The notes beneath the pieces were generated by a model. That model saw only the letters and a list, made by a program, of their open reading frames with translations, was not told the DNA's origin and did no database searches. From an uncultured Chloroflexia bacterium (GTDB taxonomy: Bacteria > Chloroflexota > Limnocylindria > Limnocylindrales > CSP1-4), in the NCBI GenBank assembly GCA_963825545.1, contig CAWGTR010000006.1, positions 223,475-287,474 on the forward strand: a DNA stretch of 64,000 bases, written 5' to 3'. The number at the start of each line of letters is the position of its first letter. Positions within the stretch are counted from its first letter, which is position 1. The translations under genes and the position numbers were made by a program. This document shows positions 2,232 through 47,820 of this stretch, piece by piece.

Positions 2232-2233
2232 GG

Positions 2234-3451: not shown

Positions 3452-3779
3452 TTCGGGGGCCCCGAAGTACGGCATTCGCCCTATTGTCGGCGGACCCGCG
3501 AGGGGCGCAGGCTGGACTCGCCGGGGGGCGGCTCGCATCCCTGCTACGCGCGCTCGGCGCGAGTCGTCCCCCGGTATCCCATACCCCCTCCGGACCGTTC
3601 GGCGAGTACGCCCGGCGGTGCCTCGCCCGGGCGCCCGCGAGGGCGACCGCTGCTAGAATTGAGCGGCGTGGACCGCCCGGTCCCGTATGTCGTCCCGTGC
3701 CCGCACGGTTCCACATTCGCCGCGTCATGGAAACGCCGCCCAGCCGCCACAGCAAGCGGGGCGTGTCCGCGAGGTTGGA

Positions 3780-4136
3780 TTGACCGCCATCTGGTACGTC
3801 GTCGGGTTCGCCTTCGCCGGCGTCTCGTTCGTCCTGCTGACGATCGGCGCGGCCTGGCTGATCTCGCATCGGAACCGCGGGGACGAGCACAAGGGCCTCC
3901 CCTACGAGTCGGGGATCGACACCTTCGGCGACACCCACGGGCGGTTCGGGCTGTCGTTCTACATCTACGCCTTGCTGTTCGTGGCGTTCGACATCGAGGT
4001 GGTCTTCATCTACCTCTGGGCGATCGTCTTCCGGGATCTCCTCATCGGCGGCTTCGTGAGCATGCTCGTGTTCGTGGCGGTCCTGCTGCTCGGGCTGGCC
4101 TACGCCTGGCGGAAGGGCGTCCTCACGTGGCGCTGA
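3780..4136 (+). CDS. nuoA: NADH-quinone oxidoreductase subunit A
   Basis: Three-TM protein ...TAIWYVVGFAFAGVSFVLLTIGAAWLISHRNRGDEHKGLPYESGIDTFGD...FYIYALLFVAFDIEVVFIYLWAIVF... Preferred start is TTG 3780 (118 aa, typical NuoA length). An upstream in-frame ATG at 3687 would add a non-conserved Arg/Pro-rich leader. Confidence 0.75.
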   Translation: MTAIWYVVGFAFAGVSFVLLTIGAAWLISHRNRGDEHKGLPYESGIDTFGDTHGRFGLSFYIYALLFVAFDIEVVFIYLWAIVFRDLLIGGFVSMLVFVAVLLLGLAYAWRKGVLTWR

Positions 4137-4858
4137 AGGGCAACCCCCCGGCGGCGGACCTTCCCGCGCCGGCAGCGCCCGACGCAGCGACGAACGCGGT
4201 CGTGGTCGCCGGCGGGCGCGACCTGATCGTGCCGATCGTGGTCCCGAACACGCTCTGGGAATCGCCCACCACGGCGGCGTACGGCGGCCAGCCCGTCGGC
4301 GACACCCACCTGCGCGAGTTCGGGGCGACCGAGCTGGGGCGCCACGACGACGCCCGCTGGGGCGCCCTCGAGGTGATCCCGACGAAGGCGGACATCGTCC
4401 TCGACCTGATCCGGGCCAACAGCCTCTGGCCGCTGCTGTCGGGGCTGGCCTGCTGCGCGATCGAGATGATGTCGGCGGCGACCTCGAAGAACGACATGGA
4501 CCGCTGGGGCATGTTCCCGTTCCGGGCCAGCCCGCGCCAGGCCGACGTGCTGATCGTCGCCGGCACGCTGACGACGAAGATGGCCGGTCCGCTCATCCGC
4601 CTGTGGGAGCAGATGCCCGAGCCGAAGTGGTGTGTCGCGATGGGCGACTGCACCTGCTCGGGCGGCCGCTACAAGCGCAGCTACTCGACGATCCAGGGGA
4701 TCGACCGGGTCCTCCCGGTCGACGTCTACGTGCCCGGCTGCCCGCCCCGCCCGGAAGGGCTGATCTACGGGATGATGCGGCTCCAGCAGCTCGTCCTGGA
4801 GCGGCGCGGCCACTGGCCGGAGCGAGCGATCGGCCCGACGGTCCCGGACGGGGTCTGA
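4127..4858 (+). CDS. nuoB: NADH-quinone oxidoreductase subunit B (N2 cluster subunit)
   Basis: GTG start overlaps the nuoA stop. ...ANSLWPLLSGLACCAIEMM...DMDRWGMFPFRASPRQADVLIVAGTLTTKMAGP...KWCVAMGDCTCSGGRY...VYVPGCPPRPEGL matches NuoB, including the CC/C/C ligands. Confidence 0.85.
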   Translation: MALKGNPPAADLPAPAAPDAATNAVVVAGGRDLIVPIVVPNTLWESPTTAAYGGQPVGDTHLREFGATELGRHDDARWGALEVIPTKADIVLDLIRANSLWPLLSGLACCAIEMMSAATSKNDMDRWGMFPFRASPRQADVLIVAGTLTTKMAGPLIRLWEQMPEPKWCVAMGDCTCSGGRYKRSYSTIQGIDRVLPVDVYVPGCPPRPEGLIYGMMRLQQLVLERRGHWPERAIGPTVPDGV

Positions 4859-4863
4859 GCGCG

Positions 4864-5416
4864 ATGGATCGAGCCCTCAAGCGCCGCCTCGAGGCCCGCT
4901 TCGGAGAGCGGCTGCTCGGACCCGTCCGGCAGCGCCACGACGAGACCGAGATCCGGGTCGCGCCGGGCGACCTGCCCGAGGTGATGCGCGCCCTCCACGA
5001 CGAGCCCGACCTGCGCTTCGAGTCGCTGATGGACCTGTGCGGCGTCGACACCGGGACCGCGATGCAGACGGTCTACCACCTGTGGAGCGCGCACCACCTC
5101 GGACTGGCTCCGGGTGATCGCCGACGGCCTGTCCCGCGACGAGCCTCGGGTCCCGTCGGTCACCTTCCTGTGGAAGGGCGCCGAGTGGCAGGAGCGCGAG
5201 GCGTACGACATGTTCGGGATCGCGTTCGAGGGGAACCGCGACCTGCGCCGGATCTATATGCCGCCGGACTACACGAGCTTCCCGCTGCGCAAGGACTTCT
5301 ACCTGCCCGATGACGCCGCCCGCTCGCCCGGCGGCGGTGTCCGCCAGATGGAGCAGACCCACGCCCCGACGAACGCCACGGCCGAGGCGGCCGTGCGCCG
5401 CGCCAAGGTGAGCTGA
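4864..5416 (+). CDS. nuoC: NADH-quinone oxidoreductase subunit C, with an apparent +1 frameshift near nt 5098
   Basis: N-part (frame 1): [79 protein letters not shown]-part (frame 2): [70 protein letters not shown]. Both halves are NuoC-like; the frame changes between 5097 and 5099. Confidence 0.75.
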
Positions 5417-5426
5417 GGTCGATCGG

Positions 5427-6644
5427 ATGACCGTCGTTCGCCATCCGTCCGCCGACGACCCGCGGGTCATGCTCGACGAGGAGGTCGGGGTCTTCGAGCC
5501 CGTCCCGCCGTATCCCCCGCGGACCGAGCGTGAGGCCGAGTTCTACTCGCTCGGCGCGGGCGAGATGTTCATCAACATGGGGCCCCAGCACCCATCGACC
5601 CACGGCGTCCTGCGGGTCGTCCTCAAGATCGAGGGCGAGCGGGTCGTGGACCTCGACCCGGTCCTCGGCTACCTCCACCGCGGGGTCGAGAAGCTGTGCG
5701 AGAACGCCGACTACCACCACACGATCGCCTACACCGACCCGCTCGAGTACGTCAGCGCGCTGTTCAACGAATGGGCGCCGGTGATGGCCTTCGAGAAGCT
5801 GCTCGACGTCGAGGTGCCCCGCCGGGCCGAATACATCCGGGTCCTGTCCGGGGAGCTCAACCGGGTCGCCAGCCACGCCCTGTTCATGGGCTGGATGGCG
5901 CTCGACCTGGGCGGCCTCACCCCGATCCTGTGGAGCTTCATCGAGCGCGACGACATCGTCGACATGCTCGCCTCGCTGACCGGCCAGCGGATGCTCTTCA
6001 ACTACTTCCGGATCGGCGGCGTCAACGGCGACCTGAACCACGAGTTCATGAGCCGGCTCGGGACGTGGATGAGCAAGGCGACCGAGCAGATCGAGGCGAA
6101 CATCACGCTGCTCAACGAGAACGAGATCTTCGTCCGGCGGATGCGCGGCCTGGGAATCCTCGACCGTGAGACGGCCTTCCGGATGTGCATGACCGGCCCG
6201 AACATCCGCGCCTCGGGCGTGCCGCTCGACATGCGCCGCTCGCACCCGTACAGCGTTTACCCGGAGCTCGAGTTCGACATCCCGACCCGCCAGGAGGGCG
6301 ACTGCCTGGCGCGCTACCTCCTCCGCCTCGAGGAGATCAAGCAGAGCCTCCGGATCATCGACCAGTGCCTGAACCAGATGCCCGACGGGCCGATCATGGC
6401 CAAGCTGCCGCGGCTCATGCGACCCCGACCCGGGCGGGCCTACGCGGCCGTCGAGGGTCCGCGCGGCCAGTACGCGACCTATGCGATCAGTGACGGGACG
6501 GACCAGCCGTACCGGATGCGGATCCACGACCCGAGCTTCGTCCACCTCCAGGCCGTCGGGCTGCTGACGCCCGGCAACCTGATCGCCGACACGATGGCGA
6601 TCATGGCCTCGCTCGATCCGATCATGGGCGGCGTCGACAAGTAG
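5427..6644 (+). CDS. nuoD: NADH-quinone oxidoreductase subunit D
   Basis: 405 aa; ...FINMGPQHPSTHGVLRVVLKIEGERVVDLDPVLGYLHRGVEKLCE... is canonical 49-kDa subunit sequence. Confidence 0.9.
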   Translation: MTVVRHPSADDPRVMLDEEVGVFEPVPPYPPRTEREAEFYSLGAGEMFINMGPQHPSTHGVLRVVLKIEGERVVDLDPVLGYLHRGVEKLCENADYHHTIAYTDPLEYVSALFNEWAPVMAFEKLLDVEVPRRAEYIRVLSGELNRVASHALFMGWMALDLGGLTPILWSFIERDDIVDMLASLTGQRMLFNYFRIGGVNGDLNHEFMSRLGTWMSKATEQIEANITLLNENEIFVRRMRGLGILDRETAFRMCMTGPNIRASGVPLDMRRSHPYSVYPELEFDIPTRQEGDCLARYLLRLEEIKQSLRIIDQCLNQMPDGPIMAKLPRLMRPRPGRAYAAVEGPRGQYATYAISDGTDQPYRMRIHDPSFVHLQAVGLLTPGNLIADTMAIMASLDPIMGGVDK

Positions 6645-7991
6645 ATGACGATGCTCAGCCGCTCGTTCGGCCGCCTGACCCTGCCGGGCAAGATCATCTT
6701 CACGGTCGTCCCCCTCGTCCTCATCGTCGGCGGGGTGGCCACGGCGGCCGCGATCATCGCCGCGCCGCTCGTCATCGACTTCGTCGGGGCGAACCTGCCG
6801 CTCTTCCGGTTCGTGCTGGCGGCGACGGTCGTGCTGCTGATGACCGTCCCGACGGCGTTCCTGATCATCTACATGGAGATGAAGGTCATCGCCCTGATGA
6901 ACCTTCGCTACGGGCCGGACCGGGTGGGCCCGTTCGGCTCGCTCCTGTCGGTCGTGCACGGGCTCAAGGTCCTGATGAAGGAGGACTTCACCCCGACCGG
7001 TGCCGACTCGGTGGTCTTCACCTGGGCGCCGGTGGTCGTCTACATGGCCAGCGTGATGACCCTGCTGGTGCTGCCGTTCGCCCCGGGCCTGTTCGGGCAG
7101 GACCTCAACATCGGGCTGCTGTACTTCTTCGCGATGGGCGGGCTGGGCGTCGTCGGGCTGCTCATGGCCGGCTGGTCGAGCTTCAACAAGTACTCGCTGC
7201 TCGGCGGGCTGCGCTCGGCGGCGCAGGTCGTCAGCTACGAGATTCCGCTGACCCTGTCGGTCGTCGGGATCATCCTCCTTGCCGGGACCCTGAGCCTCAA
7301 CAAGATCACGCTCGACCAGTCCGGCAGCCTGTTCGACTGGTTCGTGTTCAAGCAGCCGCTGGCGTTCCTCATCTTCTTCATCGCCGCTACGGCCGAGGCC
7401 AACCGGACGCCGTTCGACCTGACCGAGGCCGACTCGGAGATCGTGGCCGGGTTCGCCACCGAGTACTCGGGGATGCGCTTCGGGTTCTTCTTCTTCGCCG
7501 AGTACGTGAACGTGTTCATCATCTCGGGGCTCACCGTCGCGCTCTTCTTCGGCGGCTGGAACGCCCCGTTCGACTGGCCCTGGCCGATCACGCCGCACCC
7601 GGATCCGGGCGGCATGGGGGTCGGCCTGCTCGTCGCCATCGGGCTCGTGCCGCCGATCCTGATCCTCGTCCTCGGGCTGCCGTTCTATCTCGTCAACAGC
7701 CGGACGAAGCTGTGGCAGGCCCTGGTGATCGGGTTCGTCCTGTTCAACGTCCTCGCGGTCGCCGCGCTCATCGGGCTTGCCTTCCTCAGCTTCGACTGGG
7801 TCGTCGGCCTGTTCTGGTTCCTGATGAAGACGTACGCCTTCGTGTTCATGTTCGTCTGGATGCGCGGCACGCTGCCGCGGGTCCGGATCGACCAGCTCAT
7901 GGGCTTCGCCTGGAAGTGGCTGCTGCCCGCCTCGCTGCTCAACCTGTTCGTGACCGCCCTGGCGATCGTGCTCGTCGAGGGCGTTCGATGA
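6645..7991 (+). CDS. nuoH: NADH-quinone oxidoreductase subunit H
   Basis: 448 aa polytopic membrane protein; ATG immediately follows the nuoD TAG. NuoH/ND1 motifs ...MNLRYGPDRVGPFGSLLSVVHGLKVLMKEDF...GWSSFNKYSLLGGLRSAAQVVSYEIP... Confidence 0.9.
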   Translation: MTMLSRSFGRLTLPGKIIFTVVPLVLIVGGVATAAAIIAAPLVIDFVGANLPLFRFVLAATVVLLMTVPTAFLIIYMEMKVIALMNLRYGPDRVGPFGSLLSVVHGLKVLMKEDFTPTGADSVVFTWAPVVVYMASVMTLLVLPFAPGLFGQDLNIGLLYFFAMGGLGVVGLLMAGWSSFNKYSLLGGLRSAAQVVSYEIPLTLSVVGIILLAGTLSLNKITLDQSGSLFDWFVFKQPLAFLIFFIAATAEANRTPFDLTEADSEIVAGFATEYSGMRFGFFFFAEYVNVFIISGLTVALFFGGWNAPFDWPWPITPHPDPGGMGVGLLVAIGLVPPILILVLGLPFYLVNSRTKLWQALVIGFVLFNVLAVAALIGLAFLSFDWVVGLFWFLMKTYAFVFMFVWMRGTLPRVRIDQLMGFAWKWLLPASLLNLFVTALAIVLVEGVR

Positions 7992-8001
7992 GCGCCGGGC
8001 G

Positions 8002-8664
8002 ATGACGTTCGTCCCGGGCCTTGGCCTCGTCAAGGGGATGGCGCTGACCCTGCGCCGCTTCTTCGAGCCGAAGGTGACGAACCTGTACCCGGAGGTCCCC
8101 GCCCAGATCCCGCCCAAGTTCCGCGGCCGGCTGCAGCTCCTGTACGACGAGTGGGGCACGCTCAAGTGCGAGACCTGCTTCCAGTGCGCCCAGGCCTGCC
8201 CGATCGAGTGCATCGACATGGGCGGTACCGACACCAAGGGCCGTTACGCCGTCCACTGGGGGGCGCCCGAGACGTACGGCGAACGGCGCGAGGAGTCGGC
8301 CCTCCGGCGGTCGGGCCGGACCGTGCCCGACCCCGCTTACGAGCACTTCCACGGGATCGATCTGGCGGCCGTGGATGCCGTTCTCGACGAGGTCGACCAC
8401 GATCCGCGCGAGATGCTCCGGATCCTGGCCGCGATCCAGGACGCGTACGGCTACGTACCCGTGGCCGCGCTCAAGCGGGTCAGCGAGGCGACCGGCGCGT
8501 GGTACGCGATGCTGTATGGCACGGCGACCTACTACGACCACCTCGCGGTCGGGGCACGGGAGACGGCGCCGAGCGCCGACGACGCCTACGTCGGAGCGCT
8601 CGAGGGGGCCCTCCACGGTGGCATCGACGACGGGGCGGCGAGCCGGGACGCGGGCGCCCGATGA
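8002..8664 (+). CDS. fusion protein: NuoI N-terminal half (single CxxCxxCxxxCP motif) joined to a NuoE-like N-terminal helical domain lacking the [2Fe-2S] cysteines
   Basis: Residues 1-75: LYPEVPAQIPPKFRGRLQLLYDEWGTLKCETCFQCAQACPIECIDM is the NuoI N-terminus plus first ferredoxin motif; no second CxxCxxCxxxCP follows in any frame. Residues ~120-175: REMLRILAAIQDAYGYVPVAALKRVSEATGAWYAMLYGTATYYDHL resemble the NuoE N-domain. The protein ends 40 aa later with no Cys. The stop overlaps the next ATG (ATGA). Confidence 0.65.
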   Translation: MTFVPGLGLVKGMALTLRRFFEPKVTNLYPEVPAQIPPKFRGRLQLLYDEWGTLKCETCFQCAQACPIECIDMGGTDTKGRYAVHWGAPETYGERREESALRRSGRTVPDPAYEHFHGIDLAAVDAVLDEVDHDPREMLRILAAIQDAYGYVPVAALKRVSEATGAWYAMLYGTATYYDHLAVGARETAPSADDAYVGALEGALHGGIDDGAASRDAGAR

Positions 8665-10004
8665 CCGGCCTCCTGAAGACTCCGACCGGCTGGCCGAAGG
8701 TCCTCATCGAGTCGCCCCAGGCCGTCGACCCGACCGACCTCGATCGAGCCGTCCGCGATGGCGCCTTCGAGGCGCTCCGGACCGCGGTCCGGGCGATGAC
8801 CCCGAGCCAGGTCATCGGGGCGGTGGTCGGCTCCGGCCTGCGCGGTCGCGGCGGCAGCGGCTTCCCGACCGGGGCGAAGTGGCGGGTCGCGGCGAGCGCC
8901 CCCGGACCCACCCGCTACGTCGTCGCCAACGGCTACGGCGCCGACCCGGCGGTCCAGACCGACCGGACGCTCATGGAGCTGGCCCCGTATGCCGTGGTCG
9001 AGGGGGTCGCCCTGGCGGCCTATGCGATCGGGGCCGGCGAGGCGATCATTGCCGTCCGGGCCGATGCCGCCGAGGCGATCCGCCGGCTTGACGCGGCGAT
9101 CGGCGCCGCCGAGGAGGCCGGCTTCGCGGGGCCCGACGTCCTGGAGTCCGGCTGGGACCTGTCGATCCAGGTCCGCCCCGTCCAGGGTGCCTACATGCTC
9201 GGCGAGGAGACCGTCCTGCTCAAGGCGCTCGAGGGCAAGCGGGGCCAGCCCGAGCAGCGGCCGCCGCACCCGGCGGAGCGCGGGCTGTTCGGCCGCCCGA
9301 CGGTCGTCGACAACGTCCAGACCCTGGCGAGCGTGCCCTGGATCGTCCGCAACGGACCCGAGGCATACGCCGCGATCGGCTCGACGGCGAGCCCAGGGAC
9401 GATCCTCGTCCAGCTCCGCGCGCCGGCCGGCGGTGGGATCGCCGAGGTGCCGCTCGGGACCCCGCTCCGGGAGCTCATCGCGCTCGCCGGCCCGCGGGCC
9501 GGCCGATCGGACGGCGGCCGGCCGGTCAAGGCGGTCCTCGTCGGCGGACCCGCGGGTGGGTTCCTGCCGGCGGACCTGCTCGACACGCCGTTCGACTTCG
9601 AGTCGCTCCGCGACGTCGGGGCGCACGTCGGATCCGGCTCCATCGTCGTCGCCGACGACCGGGCCTGCGTCGTCGACCTGGCCCGGCTGCTCAGCCGCTT
9701 CTGCGCCGATCAGGCCTGTGGCAAGTCGATCCCCTGCCGGATCGGCACCCGTCGCCTGTCCGAGATCGCCGACCGGATCGCGGTCGGCACGCCGCGCCCG
9801 ACCGATGCCGGGCTGGCCGCCGACCTGGCCGCCGACATCCAGGGTTCCGGCCTGTGCGACCACGAGCGGCTGGCGACGCTGCCGATGACCAGCGCGATGC
9901 GATACTTCCGTGCCGAGCTCGACGACCATCTCCTCCGCAGCACCTGCCCCGCCGGCGTCTGCCACCCGATCAAGGTGGCCGTCGGGGCCGACCGAGGCGC
10001 TTGA
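8661..10004 (+). CDS. NuoF-like (51-kDa) subunit homolog with divergent FMN/NADH and N3-cluster motifs
   Basis: 447 aa. SGLRGRGGSGFPTGAKW and GAYMLGEETVLLKALEGKRGQPEQRPPHPAERGLFGRPTVVDNVQT align to NuoF. The YLVCNADEGEPGT motif is replaced by YVVANGYGADPAV. The Cys region reads FCADQACGKSIPCRIGT...GLCDH instead of ESCGKCTPCREG...C. Confidence 0.75.
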   Translation: MTGLLKTPTGWPKVLIESPQAVDPTDLDRAVRDGAFEALRTAVRAMTPSQVIGAVVGSGLRGRGGSGFPTGAKWRVAASAPGPTRYVVANGYGADPAVQTDRTLMELAPYAVVEGVALAAYAIGAGEAIIAVRADAAEAIRRLDAAIGAAEEAGFAGPDVLESGWDLSIQVRPVQGAYMLGEETVLLKALEGKRGQPEQRPPHPAERGLFGRPTVVDNVQTLASVPWIVRNGPEAYAAIGSTASPGTILVQLRAPAGGGIAEVPLGTPLRELIALAGPRAGRSDGGRPVKAVLVGGPAGGFLPADLLDTPFDFESLRDVGAHVGSGSIVVADDRACVVDLARLLSRFCADQACGKSIPCRIGTRRLSEIADRIAVGTPRPTDAGLAADLAADIQGSGLCDHERLATLPMTSAMRYFRAELDDHLLRSTCPAGVCHPIKVAVGADRGA

Positions 10005-12640
10005 TGACCGACCTGATCGTCCGACCCGAAGGCGCCCCGCCCGCCGAGCCGGGCGTCGCCGAGACCCTCGCGGAGCGACTGCTCGACGTGTCGGCGCCGC
10101 AGCGCCCGATGAGCGCCCCGGTGATCCGGATCGAGGTCGACGGGCGGGTCGTCGAGGGTCGCGACGGCCAGACGATCCTCGAGGTCTGCCGCGACAACGG
10201 GATCGAGGTCCCGACGCTGTGCTACGAGCCGAAGCTGCCCGGCTTCGGCGCCTGCCGGATGTGCGTCGTCGAGGTCGAGGGCGAAGAGCACCCGCCGATC
10301 AGCTGCTCGCGCGCGGCAGAGGCCGGCATGAAGGTCCAGACCCAGACCGACGAGGTGCGCCGCCTGCGGGCCACGAACCTCGAGCTGATCTTCAGCGACC
10401 ACAACGCCTACTGCCTGCCGCCCTGCCAGAACAAGTGCCCGAGCCACATCGACATTCCCGGCTTCCTCAAGCAGAACGCCGAGGGCGAGTGGCGCGAGTC
10501 GACCCGGATCTTCAAGCGGACGATCCCCTTCCCGAGCGTGCTCGGACGGGTCTGCCCGGCGCCGTGCGAGGAGCACTGCCGGCGCGACGAGGTCGATGAG
10601 GCGATCGCCATCCGTGACAGCCACCGCTACGCCGGGGACCAGGTCATCAAGGCGATGCTCGACGACGGGATCGACCCGCCGCTGCCATTCGAGCCCCAGC
10701 CGAAGACGGGTCGCCGGGCGGCCGTCATCGGGTCCGGCCCGGCCGGGATGAGCGCCGCCTACTACCTCCTCCTGGCCGGTCACGACGTGACCGTCTTCGA
10801 GCGCGACCCGGCGCCCGGCGGGATGCTCCGCTACGGGATCCCGCAGTACCGGCTCCCGAAGATCGAGGTCCTCGAGGCGGAGTACGAGTCGGTCAGCCGG
10901 CTGGGCGGGAAGATCGTATGCAACCAGGCCCTCGGGCGCGACTTCACCCTCGACGACCTCCAGGGCCAGGGCTACGACGCCGTCCTGGTGGCGATCGGCT
11001 GCTACGACACGAACAAGCTGGGCATCCCGAACGAGGACGCCGACGGCGTCATCGACGGCCTCGAATACCTCCAGACGGCCACCCTCGGCCTGCCCTACCC
11101 CGGGCACCGCGGGAAGCGCGTCGTCGTGATCGGCGGGGGGTTCACCTCGATGGACTGCTCGCGGACGTCGATCCGCCAGGGTGCCGCCGAGGTGACCCTC
11201 GTCTATCGCCGGGACATGAAGGACATGCCCGCCTCGAACGAGGTCCACGAGGCGATCGAGGAAGGCGTCCAGGCGATCTTCCAGGCCGCCCCGACGCGGG
11301 TCATCGTCGACGAGAAGACCGGCCGGGTGAGCGGCGTCGAGTTCATCCGCAACAAGCTCGGCGAGCCCGACGCGTCGGGCCGGCGGCGGCCCGAGCCGTC
11401 GCCCGGCACGGAGTTCACAATCGATTGCGACCGGGTCCTCCTGGCGATCGGCCAGGGCCCCGACCTGACCTGGATCGGGCCGGGCTCGGAGGGTCCCGAG
11501 GCGACGAAGCAGCGCCGGCTGAAGGCCGACCCGGTGACGTTCGAGACCGGACGGCCCGGCGTGTTCGGGACCGGCGACGTGCGGGTCGGCGCGGCCACCG
11601 TCGTCCAGGCGATCGCCGAGGGCCGCCGGGCGTCGTACGCCGCGGACGCCTACCTGCGTGGGATGGACCTCGGGACGATCCGGGCCCGCCAGACGCTCGC
11701 CGAGCCGCAGCCCGAGTTCCTGTCGATCGTGCCATTTACGAGCGAGGTCAAGGAACCCCGCTACCGGCTCAAGGCGATGGACGCCGAGGTCCGCAACAAG
11801 AGCTACCTCGAGTACGAGATCCCGTACACCCCCGCGGAGGCGGTCGCGGAGTCGACCCGCTGCCTGCAGTGCACCTGCGAGGCGATTGGGTTCTGCGACC
11901 TGCGCCGGCTCGGAATCGAGTACGGGACGACACTGCGCACGCTCGAGCCGCAGTTCCACCAGGGCGCGGGCTACCGGAGCGTCACCGAGAACCGCTTCAC
12001 CGGGATCAACCACGACTACGTGCGCGACGACAGCCACGCCTTCATCCTCCGCGAGCCGTCGCGCTGCATCGACTGCGGCCGCTGCGCCCAGGTCTGCTCC
12101 GAGGTCGTCGGGGCCGCCTGCTACGACTTCATGCGGATCGGCTTCGACACGCTCGTGACGACCCCGCTCGACATGAGCCTCAACGACACCCCGTGCGTGT
12201 CCTGTGGGCGCTGCGCCGAGACCTGCCCGACCGGGGCGCTGATGCCGAAGCCACGGGTGCTCGAGAAGTACGAGGTCGACGAGAGCCGCTGCATCCTGTG
12301 CGGGATCTGCGTCGATGCCTGTCCGTACGACGCCCTCCGCGACGGCGCCGACTTCGAGCTCAGCCACGTCGATCGCTCCGAGCCGATGGTCGACCTGATC
12401 GCCCTGGCGGCCATCGACCGGGAGACGGAGGCGACCTACATCCGCCGCGAGCGCGACTGGGTCGCCCGCGCCACCGCCGCCGGGCGTCCACCGGATCCGT
12501 CGCGCCTCCTGCCGGTCCTGCCGCCATCCGTCACCGGGGGCGGGGCGGGCCTGGCCGCCGCGCGCCACGGAGAGCGAACGGGCGGCAACGGCGCCTCCGG
12601 CAACGGCGCGGCCGGCGCCGGCCACGCCCATCACGAGTAG
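10004..12640 (+). CDS. multidomain Fe-S flavoprotein: NuoG-like N-terminal [2Fe-2S] domain, inserted GltD-like NAD(P)H:FAD oxidoreductase (glutamate synthase small-subunit fold), NuoG-like N5/N4 cluster region, and a C-terminal 2x[4Fe-4S] NuoI-like ferredoxin domain; no molybdopterin domain
   Basis: 878 aa. ATG overlaps the preceding stop (TGATG). 2Fe-2S pattern CYEPKLPGFGACRMCVVEVEGEEHPPISC (C-x10-C-x2-C-x13-C). The GltD block CLPPCQNKCPSHIDIPGF...GRVCPAPCEEHC...AAVIGSGPAGMSAAYYL...GIPNEDADGV...GKRVVVIGGGFTSMDCSRTSIRQGA...GEPDASGRRRPE...FGTGDVRVGAATVVQAIAEGRRAS aligns closely to E. coli GltD. Then LRRLGIEYG...SRCIDCGRCAQVCSEVVG...TCPTGAL (NuoG N4-like), then CVSCGRCAETCP and CILCGICVDACPYDAL...DFE (NuoI-like). 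Confidence 0.8.
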   Translation: MTDLIVRPEGAPPAEPGVAETLAERLLDVSAPQRPMSAPVIRIEVDGRVVEGRDGQTILEVCRDNGIEVPTLCYEPKLPGFGACRMCVVEVEGEEHPPISCSRAAEAGMKVQTQTDEVRRLRATNLELIFSDHNAYCLPPCQNKCPSHIDIPGFLKQNAEGEWRESTRIFKRTIPFPSVLGRVCPAPCEEHCRRDEVDEAIAIRDSHRYAGDQVIKAMLDDGIDPPLPFEPQPKTGRRAAVIGSGPAGMSAAYYLLLAGHDVTVFERDPAPGGMLRYGIPQYRLPKIEVLEAEYESVSRLGGKIVCNQALGRDFTLDDLQGQGYDAVLVAIGCYDTNKLGIPNEDADGVIDGLEYLQTATLGLPYPGHRGKRVVVIGGGFTSMDCSRTSIRQGAAEVTLVYRRDMKDMPASNEVHEAIEEGVQAIFQAAPTRVIVDEKTGRVSGVEFIRNKLGEPDASGRRRPEPSPGTEFTIDCDRVLLAIGQGPDLTWIGPGSEGPEATKQRRLKADPVTFETGRPGVFGTGDVRVGAATVVQAIAEGRRASYAADAYLRGMDLGTIRARQTLAEPQPEFLSIVPFTSEVKEPRYRLKAMDAEVRNKSYLEYEIPYTPAEAVAESTRCLQCTCEAIGFCDLRRLGIEYGTTLRTLEPQFHQGAGYRSVTENRFTGINHDYVRDDSHAFILREPSRCIDCGRCAQVCSEVVGAACYDFMRIGFDTLVTTPLDMSLNDTPCVSCGRCAETCPTGALMPKPRVLEKYEVDESRCILCGICVDACPYDALRDGADFELSHVDRSEPMVDLIALAAIDRETEATYIRRERDWVARATAAGRPPDPSRLLPVLPPSVTGGGAGLAAARHGERTGGNGASGNGAAGAGHAHHE

Positions 12641-12652
12641 GGAGGAGCGCGG

Positions 12653-13204
12653 GTGCCGATCCCGGACACGATCCCGGTCATCGGGGCGACTTGGAACGAC
12701 GCCCTGTTCGTGATCTTCGCCGGGATCCTCCTCGGATCCGGGCTGCTCGTCGTCACCCTCCGCGACATCATCCGCTGCGGGCTGGCGATGATCGTCTGCT
12801 TCGGCGCCCTGGCCGGCATCTACGTCATCCTCGGCGCACCGCTCATCGCCGGGGCCCAGGTGCTCGTCTACATCGGCGCGATCAGCGTGCTCATCCTGTT
12901 CGCCATCATGCTCACCCAGACGAAGGCCGCCCCGGCCCGCCTCGTGTTCCAGACCCAGGCGGTCCCGGCGGCGATCGCCGCGCTCGTCCTGGCAGTGATC
13001 CTCGCGCTCGTGGTCGTGTCGACGGACTGGGGTGCCGCGGCGGCGGTCGCGCGGACGGCGACGGACGACATGGCCCGCCTCCTGTTCCACGACTATGTCC
13101 TGCCGTTCGAGGTCGTGAGCGTCCTGCTCCTCGCGGCGGTCGTCGGCGGGGTCTACCTTGCCAAGCGCGAGGTCGACGCGACCGAGGAGCGCGGCCCGCG
13201 ATGA
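12653..13204 (+). CDS. nuoJ: NADH-quinone oxidoreductase subunit J
   Basis: GTG start 9 nt after a GGAGG Shine-Dalgarno. 183-aa membrane protein ...FVIFAGILLGSGLLVVTLRDIIRCGLAMIVCFGALAGIYVILGAPLIAGAQVLVYIGAISVLILFAIM... Confidence 0.85.
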   Translation: MPIPDTIPVIGATWNDALFVIFAGILLGSGLLVVTLRDIIRCGLAMIVCFGALAGIYVILGAPLIAGAQVLVYIGAISVLILFAIMLTQTKAAPARLVFQTQAVPAAIAALVLAVILALVVVSTDWGAAAAVARTATDDMARLLFHDYVLPFEVVSVLLLAAVVGGVYLAKREVDATEERGPR

Positions 13205-13512
13205 CGAACTCCCTCGATGCCTACCTGATCCTGTCCGGCCTGCTGTTCTGCCTCGGGACCTTCGGCTTCCTTGCCCGCCGCAACGCGATCAGCATGCTCA
13301 TGTCGATCGAGCTGATGCTCAACGCCGTCAACCTCTCGATCGTCGCCTTCGGGGCGTTCGTGCCCAAGCTCCAGGGCCAGGGCTCGATCATCGCCCTGGT
13401 GGTGATGGCCGTGGCGGCGGGTGAGGCGACGGTCGGGCTGGCCATCGTCATGGCGATCTTCCGCAACCGGCGGACGCCGCTCGTCGACGAGTACGACTCG
13501 ATGCGGCAGTAA
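13201..13512 (+). CDS. nuoK: NADH-quinone oxidoreductase subunit K
   Basis: ATGA overlap with nuoJ. MTNSLDAYLILSGLLFCLGTFGFLARRNAISMLMSIELMLNAVNLSIVAFGAF...GEATVGLAIVMAIFRNRRT is canonical NuoK. Confidence 0.9.
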   Translation: MTNSLDAYLILSGLLFCLGTFGFLARRNAISMLMSIELMLNAVNLSIVAFGAFVPKLQGQGSIIALVVMAVAAGEATVGLAIVMAIFRNRRTPLVDEYDSMRQ

Positions 13513-13516: not shown

Positions 13517-15487
13517 ATGCCGTACGACGCGCTGATCGTCGCCATCCCGGCGCTGCCGATCGCCGGCTTCGCCTTCACCGCCCTGTTCGGCCGGCGCATC
13601 CAGGCGCGGCTCGGCCGGAACGCGGCCAGCGCCGTCCCGCTCGCCGTGGTGATCCTGAGCTGGCTGGCGGCGATGATCGTCGTGGTCCCCGCGCTCGGGC
13701 ATGCCGAGCCATTCGGCGAGCGCGGTCTCGACTTCACGCTGTACACCTGGATCCCGGCCGGGAACTTCGTCGTCGACGTCGGGTTCCACGTCGACGCCCT
13801 GACGGCCTGCCTCCTGATCGTGGTGACGACGATCGGGATGCTCGTCCACGTCTACTCGGTCGGGTACATGGCCCACGACCCCGGGACGTGGCGGTTCTTC
13901 GCCTACCTCAACCTGTTCATGTTCTCGATGCTGCTGCTCGTGCTGGCCGACAGCTTCCTCGTGATCTTCGTGGCCTGGGAGCTGGTCGGGCTGTCGAGCT
14001 ACCTGCTGATCGGGTTCTGGTACCGCAAGCCGACCGCGGCGCTCGCCGCGAAGAAGGCGTTCATCGTCAACCGTGTCGGGGACGTCGGCTTCGCGCTCGG
14101 GATCATGCTCATCTTCGTGAGCCTCGGGACGCTCAACGTCCAGGCGGTGCTCGGGTCGATCGGGACGCTCGACCAGTTCACGATCGTGGCCATCGCGCTG
14201 CTCGTGTTCTGTGGCGCAGTCGGCAAGAGCGCCCAGTTCCCGCTCCACGTCTGGCTGCCCGACGCGATGGAGGGCCCGACCCCCGTCTCGGCGCTGATCC
14301 ATGCCGCGACGATGGTCAACGCCGGGGTCTACCTGATCGCGCGGGTCAACCCGATCTTCGGCCACGCCCAGGGCGCGATGGTCGTGGTGGCGGCGATCGG
14401 GATCTTCACCGCGCTGCTCGCCGCGTCGATCGCGTTCACCCAGACCGACATCAAGCGCGTCCTCGCCTACTCGACGTTGTCCCAGCTCGGCTACATGTTC
14501 GCCGCGCTCGGCGTCGGCGCCTGGATCGGCGCCATCTTCCACCTCATGGCCCACGGTTTCTTCAAGGGCCTCCTGTTCCTCGATTCGGGGTCGGTGATCC
14601 ACGCCGTCCACGAGGAGCAGGACATGCGCCGGATGGGCGGGCTGTGGCGCAAGATCCCGATCACGTACTGGACGATGCTCATCGGCGCGCTGGCGATCTC
14701 GGGGATCCCGCCGCTGGCCGGCTTCTTCAGCAAGGACGAGATCCTCGGCGAGGCGTTCAAGAACGGCTTCCTCGTCGTCTGGGCGATCGGCTTCGCGGTC
14801 GCCGGGATGACCGCCTTCTACATGTTCCGGCTGATGGGGATGACCTTCTGGGGCCCGAGCCACGTCGACCCGAAGGTGGAGCCCACGATCCATGAGTCGC
14901 CCCGCTCGATGACCGTGCCGCTCATCCTGCTGGCGATCGCGTCGATCTTCCTCGGGCTCGTGATCGGCGTGCCGCTCGGTGCCGGCCTGATCAACACCTG
15001 GCTCGAGCCGGTGTTCGCCGAGACGATCGCGCTGACTGGCGGCGAGGCGGCTCCGTTCGGCCCGCTTGACGTAGCCCTGATCCTGGCCAGCGTGTCGATC
15101 GCGACGATCGGGATCATCGTCGCCTGGCGCTTCTTCGGGGTCGAGCTCGGCGCCCTCCGCCGCGCTCCGCGGCCGAAGGAGGTCACGGCGATCGCCACGG
15201 CCAGCCCCCTGACCCGGTTCCTCTACCGCGCTTCGCTCAACAAGTGGTGGTTCGACGACCTCAACGACCTGTTGTTCATCCGGATCGGCGGGCGGATCGC
15301 GGCCGCGGCCTGGTGGTTCGACCGGACGATCATCGACGGCACGGTCAACGAGATCGGCACAATCGCTGTCGGCGTCGGCCGGGAGCTGCGCCGGGTCCAG
15401 ACCGGTCGGGTCCAGAACTACGCCCTCGGGATCGCCATCGGGCTGATCGTGATGGCCGGCTCGTACCTCGTGATCGTGGGGCGCTGA
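13517..15487 (+). CDS. nuoL: NADH-quinone oxidoreductase subunit L
   Basis: 656-aa antiporter-like subunit, MPYDALIVAIPALPIAGF...WELVGLSSYLLIGFWYRKP...HAATMVNAGVYLIARV...; the long C-terminal region is typical of NuoL. Confidence 0.9.
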   Translation: MPYDALIVAIPALPIAGFAFTALFGRRIQARLGRNAASAVPLAVVILSWLAAMIVVVPALGHAEPFGERGLDFTLYTWIPAGNFVVDVGFHVDALTACLLIVVTTIGMLVHVYSVGYMAHDPGTWRFFAYLNLFMFSMLLLVLADSFLVIFVAWELVGLSSYLLIGFWYRKPTAALAAKKAFIVNRVGDVGFALGIMLIFVSLGTLNVQAVLGSIGTLDQFTIVAIALLVFCGAVGKSAQFPLHVWLPDAMEGPTPVSALIHAATMVNAGVYLIARVNPIFGHAQGAMVVVAAIGIFTALLAASIAFTQTDIKRVLAYSTLSQLGYMFAALGVGAWIGAIFHLMAHGFFKGLLFLDSGSVIHAVHEEQDMRRMGGLWRKIPITYWTMLIGALAISGIPPLAGFFSKDEILGEAFKNGFLVVWAIGFAVAGMTAFYMFRLMGMTFWGPSHVDPKVEPTIHESPRSMTVPLILLAIASIFLGLVIGVPLGAGLINTWLEPVFAETIALTGGEAAPFGPLDVALILASVSIATIGIIVAWRFFGVELGALRRAPRPKEVTAIATASPLTRFLYRASLNKWWFDDLNDLLFIRIGGRIAAAAWWFDRTIIDGTVNEIGTIAVGVGRELRRVQTGRVQNYALGIAIGLIVMAGSYLVIVGR

Positions 15488-15491: not shown

Positions 15492-17039
15492 ATGGGCGAC
15501 CTGACCATCCCGCTGCTCAGCGCGATCACCTTCACGCCGCTCGTCGGGGCGCTGGTCATCGCGGTCGTCCCGCGCACCGCCGAACGGGCGATCCGCTGGA
15601 TCGCGCTGGCGACGTCGCTGATCGCGTTCGGGCTGTCGCTCGTGCTGCTGGCGGCGTTCGACCCGCTCAAGCCGGGCTTCTCGTTCGTCGAGCAGGTGGA
15701 CTGGATCCCCGTCTTCGGGATCCAGTACAAGGTCGGGGTCGACGGCCTGTCGGCCGTGCTCGTGGTGCTCACGACGACGCTGTCGTGGATCAGCATCCTC
15801 GCCTCGTTCGGGCCGATCCACGAGCGGATCAAGGAGTACATGATCTCGTTCCTGATCCTCGAGGTCGGCCTGATCGGCGTGTTCGTGGCGCTCGACCTGT
15901 TCCTGTTCTACGTGTTCTGGGAGGTCGTCCTCGTCCCGATGTACCTGATCATCGGGATCTGGGGCGGCTCAAACCGGGTGTACGCGACGATCAAGTTCGT
16001 GCTGTACACGCTCGTCGGGTCGCTGCTGATGCTGGTCGCGATCCTGGCCACGGCCTTCACCTACCAGTCGGCGACCGGCAGCTGGGACCACGCCTTCGAC
16101 TTCGAGTACCTGCGCAGCTTCGCCGCGACAGTCGGGTTCGCGAATGGGCTCCAGGTGTTCGCGTTCCTGGCCTTCTTCCTCGCCTTCGCGATCAAGGTCC
16201 CCATGTTCCCGTTCCACACCTGGCTGCCGGATGCCCACGTCGAGGCCCCGACGGCCGGGTCGGTGATCCTCGCGGCGATCATGCTCAAGCTCGGCGCCTA
16301 CGGGTTCATCCGCTTCGCGGTGCCGCTGTTCCCCGATGCGGCCCACACGTTCGCGGTACCGATCATCGTGCTCAGCCTCATCGCGATCATCTATGGCGCG
16401 GTCGTCGCCCTCGTCCAGCCCGACCTCAAGAAGCTCATCGCCTACTCGTCGGTCAGCCACATGGGCTTCGTGACCCTCGGGATCTTCGTGTTCCAGCAGC
16501 AGGGCCTGCAGGGGGCGATCCTGCAGATGGTCAACCACGGGCTGATCACCGGGGCCCTGTTCCTCCTGGTCGGGGTGATCTACGAGCGGACCCACGACCG
16601 GACGATCGCCAGGATGGGCGGGCTGTCGGGCCGAACTCCGGTGTACGCCGCCGCATTCGGCTTCTTTGTCTTCGCCAGCGCCGGGCTGCCCGGGCTGTCC
16701 GGGTTCGTCGGCGAGTTCCTGGTGCTGGTCGGGACCTTCGCGGCCAGCCCGTACGCCGCGGCCATCGCCACGTTCTGCATGATCCTGGCGGCCGGCTACC
16801 TGCTCTGGATGTTCCAGCGCGTCTTCACGGGCGAGCTGTCCGACTTCCTGGCCGGCCTCGGCCAGCACCTGACCGACATCCGTCCGATCGAGATCGCGAC
16901 GCTCGCCCCGCTCGGGGCGATGATCGTCGTGTTCGGGCTCTTCCCCGGCCTCCTCCTGACGATCATCCAGGGCACCGTGGCGACCTTCACCGCGAGCGTC
17001 GGCGCCCACGACGTCGCCGTCCACCTGATGGTCCGGTAG
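15492..17039 (+). CDS. nuoM: NADH-quinone oxidoreductase subunit M
   Basis: 515 aa; ...FLFYVFWEVVLVPMYLIIGIWGG...FPFHTWLPDAHVEAPTAGSVILAAIMLKLGAYGFIRF... Confidence 0.9.
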   Translation: MGDLTIPLLSAITFTPLVGALVIAVVPRTAERAIRWIALATSLIAFGLSLVLLAAFDPLKPGFSFVEQVDWIPVFGIQYKVGVDGLSAVLVVLTTTLSWISILASFGPIHERIKEYMISFLILEVGLIGVFVALDLFLFYVFWEVVLVPMYLIIGIWGGSNRVYATIKFVLYTLVGSLLMLVAILATAFTYQSATGSWDHAFDFEYLRSFAATVGFANGLQVFAFLAFFLAFAIKVPMFPFHTWLPDAHVEAPTAGSVILAAIMLKLGAYGFIRFAVPLFPDAAHTFAVPIIVLSLIAIIYGAVVALVQPDLKKLIAYSSVSHMGFVTLGIFVFQQQGLQGAILQMVNHGLITGALFLLVGVIYERTHDRTIARMGGLSGRTPVYAAAFGFFVFASAGLPGLSGFVGEFLVLVGTFAASPYAAAIATFCMILAAGYLLWMFQRVFTGELSDFLAGLGQHLTDIRPIEIATLAPLGAMIVVFGLFPGLLLTIIQGTVATFTASVGAHDVAVHLMVR

Positions 17040-17046: not shown

Positions 17047-18519
17047 ATGAGCTCGCAGGAACTCCTCACGATCGCCCCGCTCGTGACGGCCATCCTGGTA
17101 GCCGCGGCGGTCATCGTCGTCGACCTCGTACGGCCCGGCGCGCGCACCGAGCCACTCGTCGTCGCGCTGGTCGGGCTGGCGATCGTCGCCGCGGTCACGG
17201 TCGTGTCCGGGGCGAACCCGGGCGACGCCTTCGGCGGCGCCTACCGGGTGGACGCGCTGACGACGCTGCTCGACCTGCTGTTCGTCGCGATCATCGCCTT
17301 CACGCTGCTCTTCGCGCCCGACTACCTGGCGGCCCGGAACCTGCCGCTGGCCGAGTTCGCGGCCGTGCTCGTGTTCGCGATGACCGGGGCGATGCTCATC
17401 TCCGCGTCGATGGACCTGCTCGTGCTCTTCCTCGGGCTCGAGTTGATGGTCCTGCCAGGCTACCTGCTGGCCGGGTTCGCCAAGCGCGACTCGCTGTCGA
17501 CGGAAGGCGCGATCAAGTACTTCCTCCTCGGCTCGTTCAGCTCGGCGATCTTCCTGTTCGGGCTGTCGTTCGTCTGGGGCCTCACCGGGTCGACCCGGAT
17601 CGCCGCGGTCGCGTCGAGCCTCGGCGCGGTGGTCGCGGGCACCGCGCCGCTGTCCCCGGGGCTGGCAATGGGGCTCGCGTTCCTGACGACCGGCGTGGCG
17701 TTCAAGATCGCCGCGGTGCCGTTCCACTACTGGACGCCGGACGCCTACCAGGGCTCGCCCACGCCGGTCACCGGCTACCTGTCGGTCGGCCCCAAGATCG
17801 GCGCCTTCGCGCTGATCCTGCGCCTGTTCGTGGGCGCCCTCGGTCCGCTCCACGCCGACTGGCTGGTGGTGATCGTGATCCTGTCGACGATCACGATGAC
17901 GCTCGGCAACTTCGTGGCCATCACCCAGGACAACGTCAAGCGGATGCTCGCCTACTCGTCGATCGCGCACACGGGCTACATGCTCGTCGGGCTGGCCGCC
18001 TGGGCGAGCCCGAACTCGCGCATCGAGGGCATCGAGGGCCTGCTCTTCTACGCGGTCGCCTACAGCTTCATGAACCTCGGCGCGTTCGCCGTCGTGGCCG
18101 CGCTCCAGCGCCGGCGCGGGGTCACCAGCAGCATCGACACGTTCGCCGGCCTCGGCGCCCGCGAGCCCGCGCTGGCGATCCTGATGACCCTGTTCCTGCT
18201 GTCCCTGACCGGGATCCCGCCGACGGCCGGCTTCTTCGCCAAGGCGTTTGTGATCCTGGCCGGCGTCGAAGCCGGTGGGGCGGCGGCCGTGCTGGCGGTC
18301 ATCGCAGTGCTCAACGCCGCGGTCGCCGCGTTCTACTACCTGCGCGTCGTCGTCTACATGTTCATGCGCGACGCCAAGGGCGAGCCGGTGCCCCTCGAGA
18401 AGAGCGGCATCCTGCGGGTGGGCCTCGCCGGCACGGCGTTCCTGACGATCGTCCTCGGGCTGTTCCCCGGAGCGCTCGTCCAGGTCGTCGAGAACGCCGC
18501 GCGCGCCCTCGTCTCCTAG
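17047..18519 (+). CDS. nuoN: NADH-quinone oxidoreductase subunit N
   Basis: 490 aa; ...VPFHYWTPDAYQGSPTPVTGYLSVGPKIGAFALILRLF... matches the NuoN/ND2 family. It is the last gene of the operon; a convergent gene ends 34 bp downstream. Confidence 0.9.
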   Translation: MSSQELLTIAPLVTAILVAAAVIVVDLVRPGARTEPLVVALVGLAIVAAVTVVSGANPGDAFGGAYRVDALTTLLDLLFVAIIAFTLLFAPDYLAARNLPLAEFAAVLVFAMTGAMLISASMDLLVLFLGLELMVLPGYLLAGFAKRDSLSTEGAIKYFLLGSFSSAIFLFGLSFVWGLTGSTRIAAVASSLGAVVAGTAPLSPGLAMGLAFLTTGVAFKIAAVPFHYWTPDAYQGSPTPVTGYLSVGPKIGAFALILRLFVGALGPLHADWLVVIVILSTITMTLGNFVAITQDNVKRMLAYSSIAHTGYMLVGLAAWASPNSRIEGIEGLLFYAVAYSFMNLGAFAVVAALQRRRGVTSSIDTFAGLGAREPALAILMTLFLLSLTGIPPTAGFFAKAFVILAGVEAGGAAAVLAVIAVLNAAVAAFYYLRVVVYMFMRDAKGEPVPLEKSGILRVGLAGTAFLTIVLGLFPGALVQVVENAARALVS

Positions 18520-47448: not shown

Positions 47449-47820
47449 CGATCGGGTCTGACCTGTTGGCTGTCGGGGTGGCGATGGGTAATGGTCGGCC
47501 AGGGGCGCGGGCTCGGGGGAACCGTGGCGTGGGCTCGTTCGGCGCGCTCTGCAGGCCGGCGGCGGTCCGCTCCAGGGGCTCCTCGGAGGGTCTTCCAGAG
47601 GCTGCCACCGACCTTCCCGGCGCCGGGGGCCCGCGAAGGATAGCACCGGCCGGAGGAGGCTCGCAAGGCGTTCCGGCGCGATTCGCCAGATACTCCCCAG
47701 GGGTATCCGTGCGTGGCCGCCCCGACGGCCCCGACGGGTCCGACCGGGGTCGCCTCGCCGGTCGACGCCAGTCTCGCCGAAACGCGGCACGCAGGCCGGC
47801 GCCGGCGCATCCGACCTCGT

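Follow-up and report, generated by a model that had tools for sequence, protein, structure and literature searches.

Between nuoH and nuoJ, in the place of nuoI, the complex I (nuo) operon of an uncultured Chloroflexia bacterium (assembly GCA_963825545.1, contig CAWGTR010000006.1) carries three genes, which we analyzed within a stretch of 64,000 nucleotides, here called the window, with a G+C content of about 71%. All positions are coordinates in the window, and all the genes of the operon lie on the + strand, in the order nuoA-B-C-D-H-gene 1-gene 2-gene 3-J-K-L-M-N. The boundaries of gene 1 (8002 to 8664), gene 2 (8661 to 10004), and gene 3 (10004 to 12640) coincide with those proposed in a preliminary description of the locus. 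The three genes are translationally coupled, with an ATGA overlap between gene 1 and gene 2 (8661 to 8664) and a TGATG overlap between gene 2 and gene 3 (10002 to 10006), and a ribosome-binding site, GGAGGAG, lies ahead of nuoJ. The complex I membrane subunits A, H, J, K, L, and M, assigned by Pfam, and N, assigned by synteny and homology, are encoded together, and the Q-module is present as NuoB with the motifs of cluster N2, NuoC, and NuoD.

Gene 1 encodes a protein of 220 amino acids in which the N-terminal half of NuoI is fused to a NuoE-like N-domain. The NuoI half (residues 9 to 81; 8026 to 8244) matches positions 1 to 65 of the 121 positions of TIGR01971 and NuoI chains of many solved complex I structures, corresponding to residues 23 to 86 of NuoI from E. 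coli, 7 to 78 of that from M. smegmatis, and 17 to 82 of that from P. denitrificans. It holds one CxxCxxCxxxCP motif (C56, C59, C62, and C66), whose cysteines are invariant in both clades considered below, and besides this cluster motif it carries the NuoI-specific N-terminal region TxxYPE...RxRG. Residues 118 to 181 (8353 to 8544) match positions 2 to 58 of 145 of PF01257 and correspond to the helical N-domain of NuoE/HydC/NfnC. No cysteine was found after residue 70 of the protein, and therefore the thioredoxin-like [2Fe-2S] domain, which carries N1a in complex I and C1 in Bfu enzymes, is absent. The fusion of a NuoI half with a NuoE-like domain, already recognized in the preliminary description, is thus supported by TIGR01971 and PF01257, with the refinement that only the cluster-less N-domain of NuoE is retained. 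In the AlphaFold model of gene 1, the predicted local distance difference test (pLDDT) score is 85 to 95 in the NuoE-like N-domain and below 50 at residues 63 to 102. A Foldseek search with this model retrieved the N-domains of FdsG, NfnC, HydC, and NuoE with a root-mean-square deviation of 0.7 to 2.8 Å, so that the NuoE N-domain is the only part that it confirmed. Clustering at 90% identity distributes this fusion over more than 120 clusters, and the linker of gene 1 is conserved too.

Gene 3 encodes an NfnA/StnC-type subunit of 878 amino acids, in which the C-terminal half of NuoI takes the place of the molybdopterin (Mo)-like domain. Residues 40 to 795 align with NfnA of C. saccharolyticus (9bov_A; E value of 5e-165), and the next solved matches are NfnA of T. 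sibiricus (9n5u_A) and StnC of S. ovata (8oh5_C). The protein begins with a [2Fe-2S] domain of the NuoG/HydA type (10121 to 10348; PF13510 Fer2_4, E value of 2.7e-20), where the cysteines of the pattern C73-x10-C84-x2-C87-x13-C101 are invariant. A GltD/NfnB-like module follows (10400 to 11668; PF14691 Fer4_20 and PF07992 Pyr_redox_2; TIGR01318, E value of 1e-91), with two [4Fe-4S] sites, a flavin adenine dinucleotide (FAD) site, GSGPAG, and an NADPH site, GGGFTSMD...VYRRDMKDMPA, including the residues YRR. Both the FAD motif and the NADPH site (GGGFTSMDC...VTLVYRRDMKDMPA) are invariant in 62 orthologues. The Pfam and TIGR scans of the three proteins thus bear out the [2Fe-2S] domain, the GltD-like module, and the NuoI halves that had been read from the sequence. 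Because the whole gene 3 protein scores below every equivalog cut-off (for TIGR01973, 96 bits against a cut-off of 470), its GltD part is best regarded as a domain relative and not as a GltD orthologue.

Downstream of the GltD-like module, gene 3 presents an invariant CxxCxCx5C cluster motif (C620, C623, C625, and C631; 11861 to 11896), aligned with 9bov_A and 9n5u_A. It continues with a two-motif ferredoxin-like domain of the HydA/NuoG type (12044 to 12241; PF22117 Fer4_Nqo3, residues 681 to 746), whose motifs A (C688 to C698) and B (C731 to C741) align with the two-motif domain of 9bov_A and are about 100% invariant. The C-terminal half of NuoI (residues 751 to 812; 12254 to 12439) consists of motif C, CxxCxxCxxxCP (C763 to C773), and of the NuoI C-terminal helices. 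In particular, residues 751 to 796 correspond to positions 71 to 116 of TIGR01971 and residues 753 to 812 to residues 93 to 152 of the 163 residues of P. denitrificans NuoI, so that the homology runs about 40 residues past motif C. The alignment with 9bov_A ends at the start of the Mo-like domain of NfnA, which is also where it places motif C. The preliminary description had interpreted this end of the protein as a complete 2x[4Fe-4S] pair followed by a NuoI-like tail; the NuoI-like C-terminal part is retained here, while the pair gives way to a HydA/NuoG-type domain followed by an orphan NuoI motif. As had been anticipated, the Pfam scan found no molybdopterin domain in gene 3, and the protein is shorter than the solved NfnA/StnC relatives (963 to 1178 amino acids). 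All 28 ligand cysteines are invariant in the 62 orthologues, which also show hardly any change across residues 662 to 780, the stretch that includes motifs A to C and the junction. The AlphaFold model, built from a 49-sequence alignment, has a mean pLDDT of 63.7, with good values for the [2Fe-2S] and GltD parts.

The two NuoI pieces are complementary and do not overlap, and their TIGR01971 scores of 49.7 bits (gene 1) and 57.4 bits (gene 3) each remain below the whole-protein cut-off of 113, while their sum comes close to it. No single NuoI polypeptide with both CxxCxxCxxxCP motifs was found in the operon, and neither was a canonical N-module (NuoE with N1a, NuoF, and NuoG with the Mo-like domain), in agreement with what had been proposed for this locus. 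Taken with the comparisons to NuoI sequences, these results indicate that the split of NuoI lies in the loop that connects its two cluster motifs. In the two-cluster ferredoxin fold, each cluster is bound by three cysteines of one motif and by a fourth cysteine of the other, and for this reason a lone motif needs a partner. Of the three CxxCxxCxxxC motifs of gene 3, A and B pair by homology with NfnA, so that the only half-sites without a partner are motif C and the motif of gene 1; it is possible to hypothesize that these two pair with each other across the two polypeptides. We also considered motifs B and C as a self-contained dicluster, on account of their clostridial-like spacing and of matches to Fer4_7 and polyferredoxins. 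We consider this pairing less likely, since the NfnA domain aligns with motifs A and B and the NuoI homology extends beyond motif C.

Gene 2 encodes a NuoF-like protein of 447 amino acids, and its identification as a NuoF homologue is substantiated by PF01512 (Complex1_51K) and PF10589 (NADH_4Fe-4S). Its best solved matches are NfnB of C. saccharolyticus (9bov_B; 378 bits), NfnB of T. sibiricus (9n5u_B), StnB of S. ovata (8oh5_B), and HydB. The B subunits of Bfu enzymes score between 378 and 359 bits, whereas complex I NuoF subunits reach at most 273 bits, and the score against TIGR01959 is 345 bits, for a cut-off of 559. The alignment covers the core only (residues 106 to 525 of the 584-amino acid 9bov_B), and therefore gene 2 lacks the N-terminal domain and the C-terminal 2x[4Fe-4S] ferredoxin domain (B3/B4). 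The segments RGRGGxG, GAYMLGEET, and GGPAGG are invariant in 73 orthologues. At the signature positions, VQT is found in place of AFM, with a middle residue that varies among orthologues, GAY in place of GAF, and GGPAG in place of GGPSG, the last two changes being conserved in the 73 orthologues. We consider gene 2, which is under selection, a trimmed B subunit of the Bfu type with a predicted site for flavin mononucleotide (FMN) and NADH and one predicted [4Fe-4S] cluster.

In a collection of species-representative genomes, the gene 1 fusion gave at least 598 matching stretches. Nearly all of them lie in metagenome-assembled genomes with a Chloroflexota, Limnocylindria, or Limnocylindrales label, and a complete chromosome of 3.1 Mb accounts for one. 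We fetched 80 of these loci, and the order nuoA-B-C-D-H-gene 1-gene 2-gene 3-J-K-L-M-N was found in every one (80/80), which excludes chance or a misassembly as the source of the in-frame fusions. Gene 3 is the most conserved of the three, with 82 to 98% identity across loci versus 63 to 96% for gene 2, and genes 1 to 3 are under strong purifying selection. A search with gene 3 among 1.8 billion representatives delineated a tight family with at least 63% identity, followed by a gap to cytoplasmic proteins of the NfnA/StnC type (1000 to 1260 amino acids; 36 to 45% identity). Among the shorter matches inspected, the exception is P0148, a protein of 816 amino acids with the same C-terminal half of NuoI.

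The relatives of P0148 form more than 120 clusters of 808 to 880 amino acids, and the named ones derive from metagenome-assembled genomes of Thermoleophilia/Actinobacteria. In the three Thermoleophilia (Actinomycetota) loci L081 (7311 to 12475), L082, and L083, the module occupies the same position in the operon (3/3 loci). Both fusion junctions are common to the Thermoleophilia and window clades, with a similar NuoI junction. The Thermoleophilia counterpart of gene 1 (gene 1'; 253 amino acids), whose family is also large, is a fusion of the NuoI N-terminal half and a complete NuoE-like protein, in which the cysteines CxxxxC...CxxxC are present. The counterpart of gene 2 (gene 2'; 636 amino acids) is a complete Bfu B subunit, with an N-terminal [2Fe-2S] domain, the AFM, GAF, GGPSG, and ESCGKCVPC motifs, and a C-terminal 2x[4Fe-4S] domain; gene 2 of the window aligns to its residues 143 to 565. 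Thus, all the parts linked to bifurcation lie inside the complex I operon in the Thermoleophilia form, while the window lacks the complete NuoE-like subunit and the full 636-amino acid B subunit. The identity between the window and Thermoleophilia proteins is 47% for gene 2 and 45% for gene 3, and the ligand cysteines of gene 3 are all invariant across both clades. Moreover, a crude neighbour-joining tree, calculated without support values, placed the two clades together and apart from the cytoplasmic proteins, which favours a single origin of both. In open-access papers and bioRxiv, we found no description of the Thermoleophilia split-NuoI operon.

From the anatomy, homology, conservation, and distribution of genes 1 to 3, we infer how the split NuoI would assemble, which nucleotides would be used, and in which direction the electrons would flow. 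With a probability of roughly 0.55, the window encodes a respiratory complex I in which the NuoE/F/G input has been replaced by a module derived from Nfn-Bfu/StnABC enzymes, that is, a dual-flavin, proton-pumping, non-bifurcating NAD(P)H:quinone oxidoreductase. The input module would be covalently wired into the connecting subunit NuoI. The gene 1 product would provide the first NuoI motif together with the helical domain that should hold the NuoF-like product of gene 2, and the gene 3 product would provide the second NuoI motif, at the site taken in the cytoplasmic relatives by a dead molybdopterin-like domain. The two orphan motifs would pair and rebuild the [4Fe-4S] clusters N6a and N6b beside cluster N2 of NuoB. 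Hydride from NADPH would be delivered to the FAD of the GltD-like domain of gene 3, a use of NADPH that is plausible and fits the NADPH site invariant in the 62 orthologues, and hydride from NADH would be delivered to the FMN of gene 2. Both iron-sulfur chains would meet in the ferredoxin-like domain of gene 3, from which the electrons would reach the rebuilt NuoI, N2, and finally quinone, with the usual proton pumping. The paper on the Stn enzyme regards the branch beyond the ferredoxin-like domain of StnC as a nonfunctional remnant; the same dead branch would be the attachment point of NuoI in the window and would become the electron outlet.

In Nfn-Bfu enzymes, the mid-potential path has been described as FAD-A7-A6-A3-A2-A1-B1-FMN, the bifurcating site as B1-FMN-C1, and the low-potential path as leading through C1, B3, and B4 to ferredoxin. 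The signatures of Bfu enzymes, namely AFM, a phenylalanine, and GGPSG, are missing from nonbifurcating relatives; furthermore, nonbifurcating homologues lack B2 to B5, and the deletion of B3/B4 in a hydrogenase abolished bifurcation. Because the low-potential branch, consisting of the [2Fe-2S] cluster of the C subunit and the extra clusters of the B subunit, is missing from the window, no bifurcation to ferredoxin is expected, and the enzyme should not bifurcate in the Bfu manner. The resemblance to StnABC, Nfn, and HydABC pointed out in the preliminary description therefore holds by descent, given the best matches 9bov, 9n5u, and 8oh5, and fails for the mechanism, since the bifurcation parts have been lost.

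The likeness to NfnABC/StnABC (8OH5, 9BOV, and 9N5U) includes the order of C-like, B-like, and A-like genes, the fact that genes 2 and 3 find their best sequence matches there, and an A subunit that starts with a [2Fe-2S] domain and contains an inserted GltD-like FAD/NADPH domain and clusters like those of NuoG/HydA. The electron path published for NfnABC/StnABC runs from FAD through iron-sulfur clusters to FMN. In contrast to these enzymes, gene 3 of the window has half of NuoI in place of the molybdopterin/FdhF-like domain; the C subunit is cut to its N-domain, without C1, and fused to the other NuoI half; the B subunit is without its N-terminal and B3/B4 ferredoxin domains and has changed AFM, GAF, and GGPSG motifs. 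The genes of the window lie in a nuo operon, and their products are presumably membrane bound and reduce quinone rather than ferredoxin. With the canonical complex I of T. thermophilus and E. coli, the window shares the Q-module and the membrane arm, homologous folds for the FMN subunit, for the [2Fe-2S] N-domain of NuoG, and for both NuoI halves, and the logic of a single iron-sulfur wire to N2. It differs in that NuoI is distributed over two polypeptides, N1a is missing, the NuoG equivalent has no Mo-like domain, and a second flavin site, of the FAD and NADPH type, is added; the canonical order from A to N becomes A-B-C-D-H-[I'E']-F'-[G'I'']-J-K-L-M-N. The membrane arm and the Q-module thus assign the enzyme of the window to the complex I family, and its kinship with Nfn/Stn is one of descent and not of mechanism.

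In the 11-subunit NDH-1 of cyanobacteria and chloroplasts and in the F420H2 dehydrogenase Fpo, an intact NuoI/NdhI/FpoI docks a separate input protein, whereas in the window the input module is fused into NuoI itself. A loose precedent is offered by the Mbx-like operons of Thermotoga and proteobacteria, where a gltD-related flavoprotein replaces NuoI (Degli Esposti 2015, PMC4758237), so that a GltD-type NAD(P)(H) flavoprotein sits on a membrane module of the complex I family at the position of NuoI. However, NuoI has been described as substituted there, and a NuoF/NuoE-like partner is missing, while the window keeps a split NuoI and a whole three-subunit module derived from Bfu enzymes. More generally, the complex I family has been described as an 11-subunit core that can be combined with different input modules (Moparthi and Hägerhäll 2011, PMC3144371). 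In open-access papers and bioRxiv, we found no report in which NuoI is split or a nuo operon contains a Bfu module.

Several observations weigh against the dual-flavin NAD(P)H:quinone oxidoreductase proposed here. The FMN loop of gene 2 shows conserved departures (NGYGADP for NADEGDP and NVQT for NVET), and in its cluster motif the second cysteine is always replaced by Thr or Ser, and an additional, invariant cysteine precedes the first one by five residues. Because the loop and the cluster motif are altered in this conserved way, the binding of FMN and NADH by gene 2 is not assured. In P0148 (L082, 10001 to 12451), the NADPH motif is degenerate (GDGFAAAE...WLSPCARAD versus GGGFTAMD...LYRRSRKEMPA), which weakens a universal role of NADPH across the family; the alignment consensus of the Thermoleophilia clade keeps the canonical motif, and most of its sequences retain it. 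An unregulated iron-sulfur wire between the NADH and NADPH sites would amount to an uncoupled transhydrogenase, which may or may not be tolerated. The AlphaFold pLDDT is below 50 at residues 624 to 816 of gene 3, that is, in the split-site region, and lends no support to the assembly; low values at both halves of the split site might be what is expected of half-domains. Finally, the absence of canonical nuoE, nuoF, nuoG, and nuoI applies to the operon, and a second set may be encoded elsewhere in the genome.

Some of these points would be accommodated by a complex I that accepts NADPH only, with the GltD-like FAD as the sole physiological entry and gene 2, which would no longer bind FMN or would no longer bind NADH, in a structural or electron storage role. 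The far greater conservation of gene 3 compared with gene 2, the presence of NGYGADP in the FMN loop of all 73 gene 2 orthologues, the constant lack of the canonical second cysteine of the B1/N3 cluster, and the loss of the cluster-bearing half of NuoE are in line with this possibility. Yet RGRGGxG, GAYMLGEET with its two glutamates, and GGPAGG are invariant, which is unexpected for a site that binds nothing; the changes in gene 2 are conserved and do not resemble random decay, and the invariant upstream cysteine can stand in for the lost ligand. We therefore regard NADPH as the only donor as unlikely. The opposite arrangement, in which electrons enter at FMN from NADH only and the GltD-like domain serves as a scaffold retained by descent or senses NADPH for regulation, appears slightly less probable still. 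A single flavin is enough for canonical complex I, dead remnants of older modules are carried by complex I and StnC, and P0148 and its close kin in Thermoleophilia have the degenerate NADPH motif; against this, the FAD site, the NADPH site with YRR, and the cluster cysteines of the GltD domain are invariant in the 62 Limnocylindria orthologues, and most Thermoleophilia are alike.

An energy-coupled three-way enzyme, with a coupling of the FMN, FAD, and quinone arms in which, for example, the reduction of NADP+ by NADH is driven by exergonic quinone reduction or by the proton gradient in reverse, would be consistent with the descent from a bifurcating transhydrogenase, with the putative three-armed iron-sulfur layout, and with the Thermoleophilia form, which retains the whole bifurcation set, including the C1 cysteines. 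We consider it improbable for the window, whose version lacks C1, B3, B4, and the AFM signature, all tied to bifurcation by published structures or mutants, and presents no visible feature that would gate electrons between the arms. A broader proposal, speculative and rather doubtful, though it deserves somewhat more credence than any single alternative in these two paragraphs, is that the two clades represent an unnoticed complex I family with a bifurcation module in NuoI, where the Thermoleophilia form, as one proton-pumping membrane enzyme, could couple ferredoxin, NAD(H), NADP(H), and menaquinone, and the Limnocylindria form could couple its arms for NADH, for NADPH, and for quinone with the proton gradient, as an energy-converting transhydrogenase and not as a mere dual-donor dehydrogenase. 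It could also be argued that genes 1 to 3 encode a separate, soluble Nfn-like enzyme that happens to lie inside the nuo operon, with generic NuoI-like pieces and a membrane complex that uses a NuoI encoded elsewhere, since ferredoxin motifs are common and motifs B and C score as a generic dicluster. This is very improbable in view of the NuoI-specific region of gene 1, the NuoI C-terminal region past the motif in gene 3, the coincidence of the nuoH-nuoJ interval with the exact position of nuoI, and the occurrence of the same fusions in two phyla, in 83/83 loci examined. As for an assembly artefact or a decaying pseudogene cluster, a suspicion raised by a frameshift in nuoC of the window and by broken matches in several related long-read assemblies, its probability is negligible: relatives with an intact nuoC have the same three genes, which are intact, translationally coupled, syntenic in 80 independent assemblies, and under strong purifying selection, and their conservation refutes it.

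Few energy-converting enzymes have been studied as thoroughly as complex I, whose electron input end is regarded as highly conserved. The arrangement proposed for the window would represent a new docking mode, in which a module from a cytoplasmic bifurcating transhydrogenase is spliced into the core subunit NuoI, divided in two. If this is true, NADPH oxidation would be tied directly to proton pumping, and the main proton pump of these bacteria would probably take NADPH besides NADH. Limnocylindria and Thermoleophilia are common in soils and waters. Since the NuoI halves fall below the annotation cut-offs and these proteins are annotated at source as "ferredoxin", "NuoE", or "formate dehydrogenase major subunit", metabolic reconstructions may misreport their complex I. 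Furthermore, the full form of Thermoleophilia and the trimmed form of Limnocylindria may illustrate how a bifurcating module can become nonbifurcating, and they offer structural biologists targets with which to find out what bifurcation requires.

The remaining genes of the operon flank the three genes on both sides, and no other nuo genes were found in the remainder of the window. Upstream of the module lie nuoA (3687 to 4136; PF00507 Oxidored_q4, E value of 1.2e-31), nuoB (4127 to 4858; PF01058, residues 109 to 218), where the cysteine motifs of cluster N2 can be read as CCAIEMM, MGDC, and GCPP, nuoC (4864 to 5416; PF00329), nuoD (5427 to 6644; PF00346, E value of 2.8e-86), and nuoH (6645 to 7991; PF00146, E value of 2.4e-104). 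Downstream lie nuoJ (12653 to 13204; PF00499), nuoK (13201 to 13512; PF00420), nuoL (13517 to 15487; PF00662, PF00361, and PF01010), nuoM (15492 to 17039; PF00361), and nuoN (17047 to 18519). The last gene was assigned by its position and by homology to related operons; it is syntenic and 58 to 99% identical in related loci, and the equivalent gene in L081 carries PF00361. In the window assembly, nuoC is broken by a 1-nucleotide insertion near 5092, so that positions 1 to 50 of PF00329 are matched in one frame and positions 62 to 121 in another. The window reads GCGCGCACC at this point, where L001, L004, and L008 read GCGC-CACC, without a counterpart of the extra base. The frameshift, specific to the window assembly, is most likely an indel error of long-read sequencing and less likely a real frameshift.

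N-terminal extensions precede the Pfam domains of NuoA (about 49 residues), NuoB (about 108 residues), and NuoH (about 60 residues), and NuoH, with 375 amino acids in the Thermoleophilia locus, has 448 in the window. A contact of these extensions with the rebuilt module is possible. A gene of the Methyltransf_28 family (NDUFAF7/MidA-like; 2123 to 3451, + strand; PF02636, E value of 7.9e-47) adjoins nuoA upstream, and a homologue also lies upstream of nuoA in 64 related loci. NDUFAF7 is an arginine methyltransferase that acts on the NuoD homologue during the assembly of mitochondrial complex I. The gene of the window may encode an assembly or modification factor, and its putative membership in the system is suggested by its conserved synteny.

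Elsewhere in the window, dnaN, dnaA, and yidC are grouped at 44461 to 47847 (- strand) and 48597 to 49910 (+ strand), and therefore the chromosomal replication origin probably lies inside the window, at a distance of about 26 kb from the nuo operon. No sharp switch is seen in the GC-skew profile. An open reading frame of 1814 amino acids (29952 to 35396, - strand) has protein O-mannosyltransferase (PMT) domains in its second half only, and its first 1000 residues or so have no Pfam match. The gene of release factor 2, prfB (59202 to 60342, - strand), shows the classical programmed +1 frameshift, with the shift site at 60279 to 60285: CTT TGA C closes a short upstream frame, from which the main frame continues with no start codon of its own.

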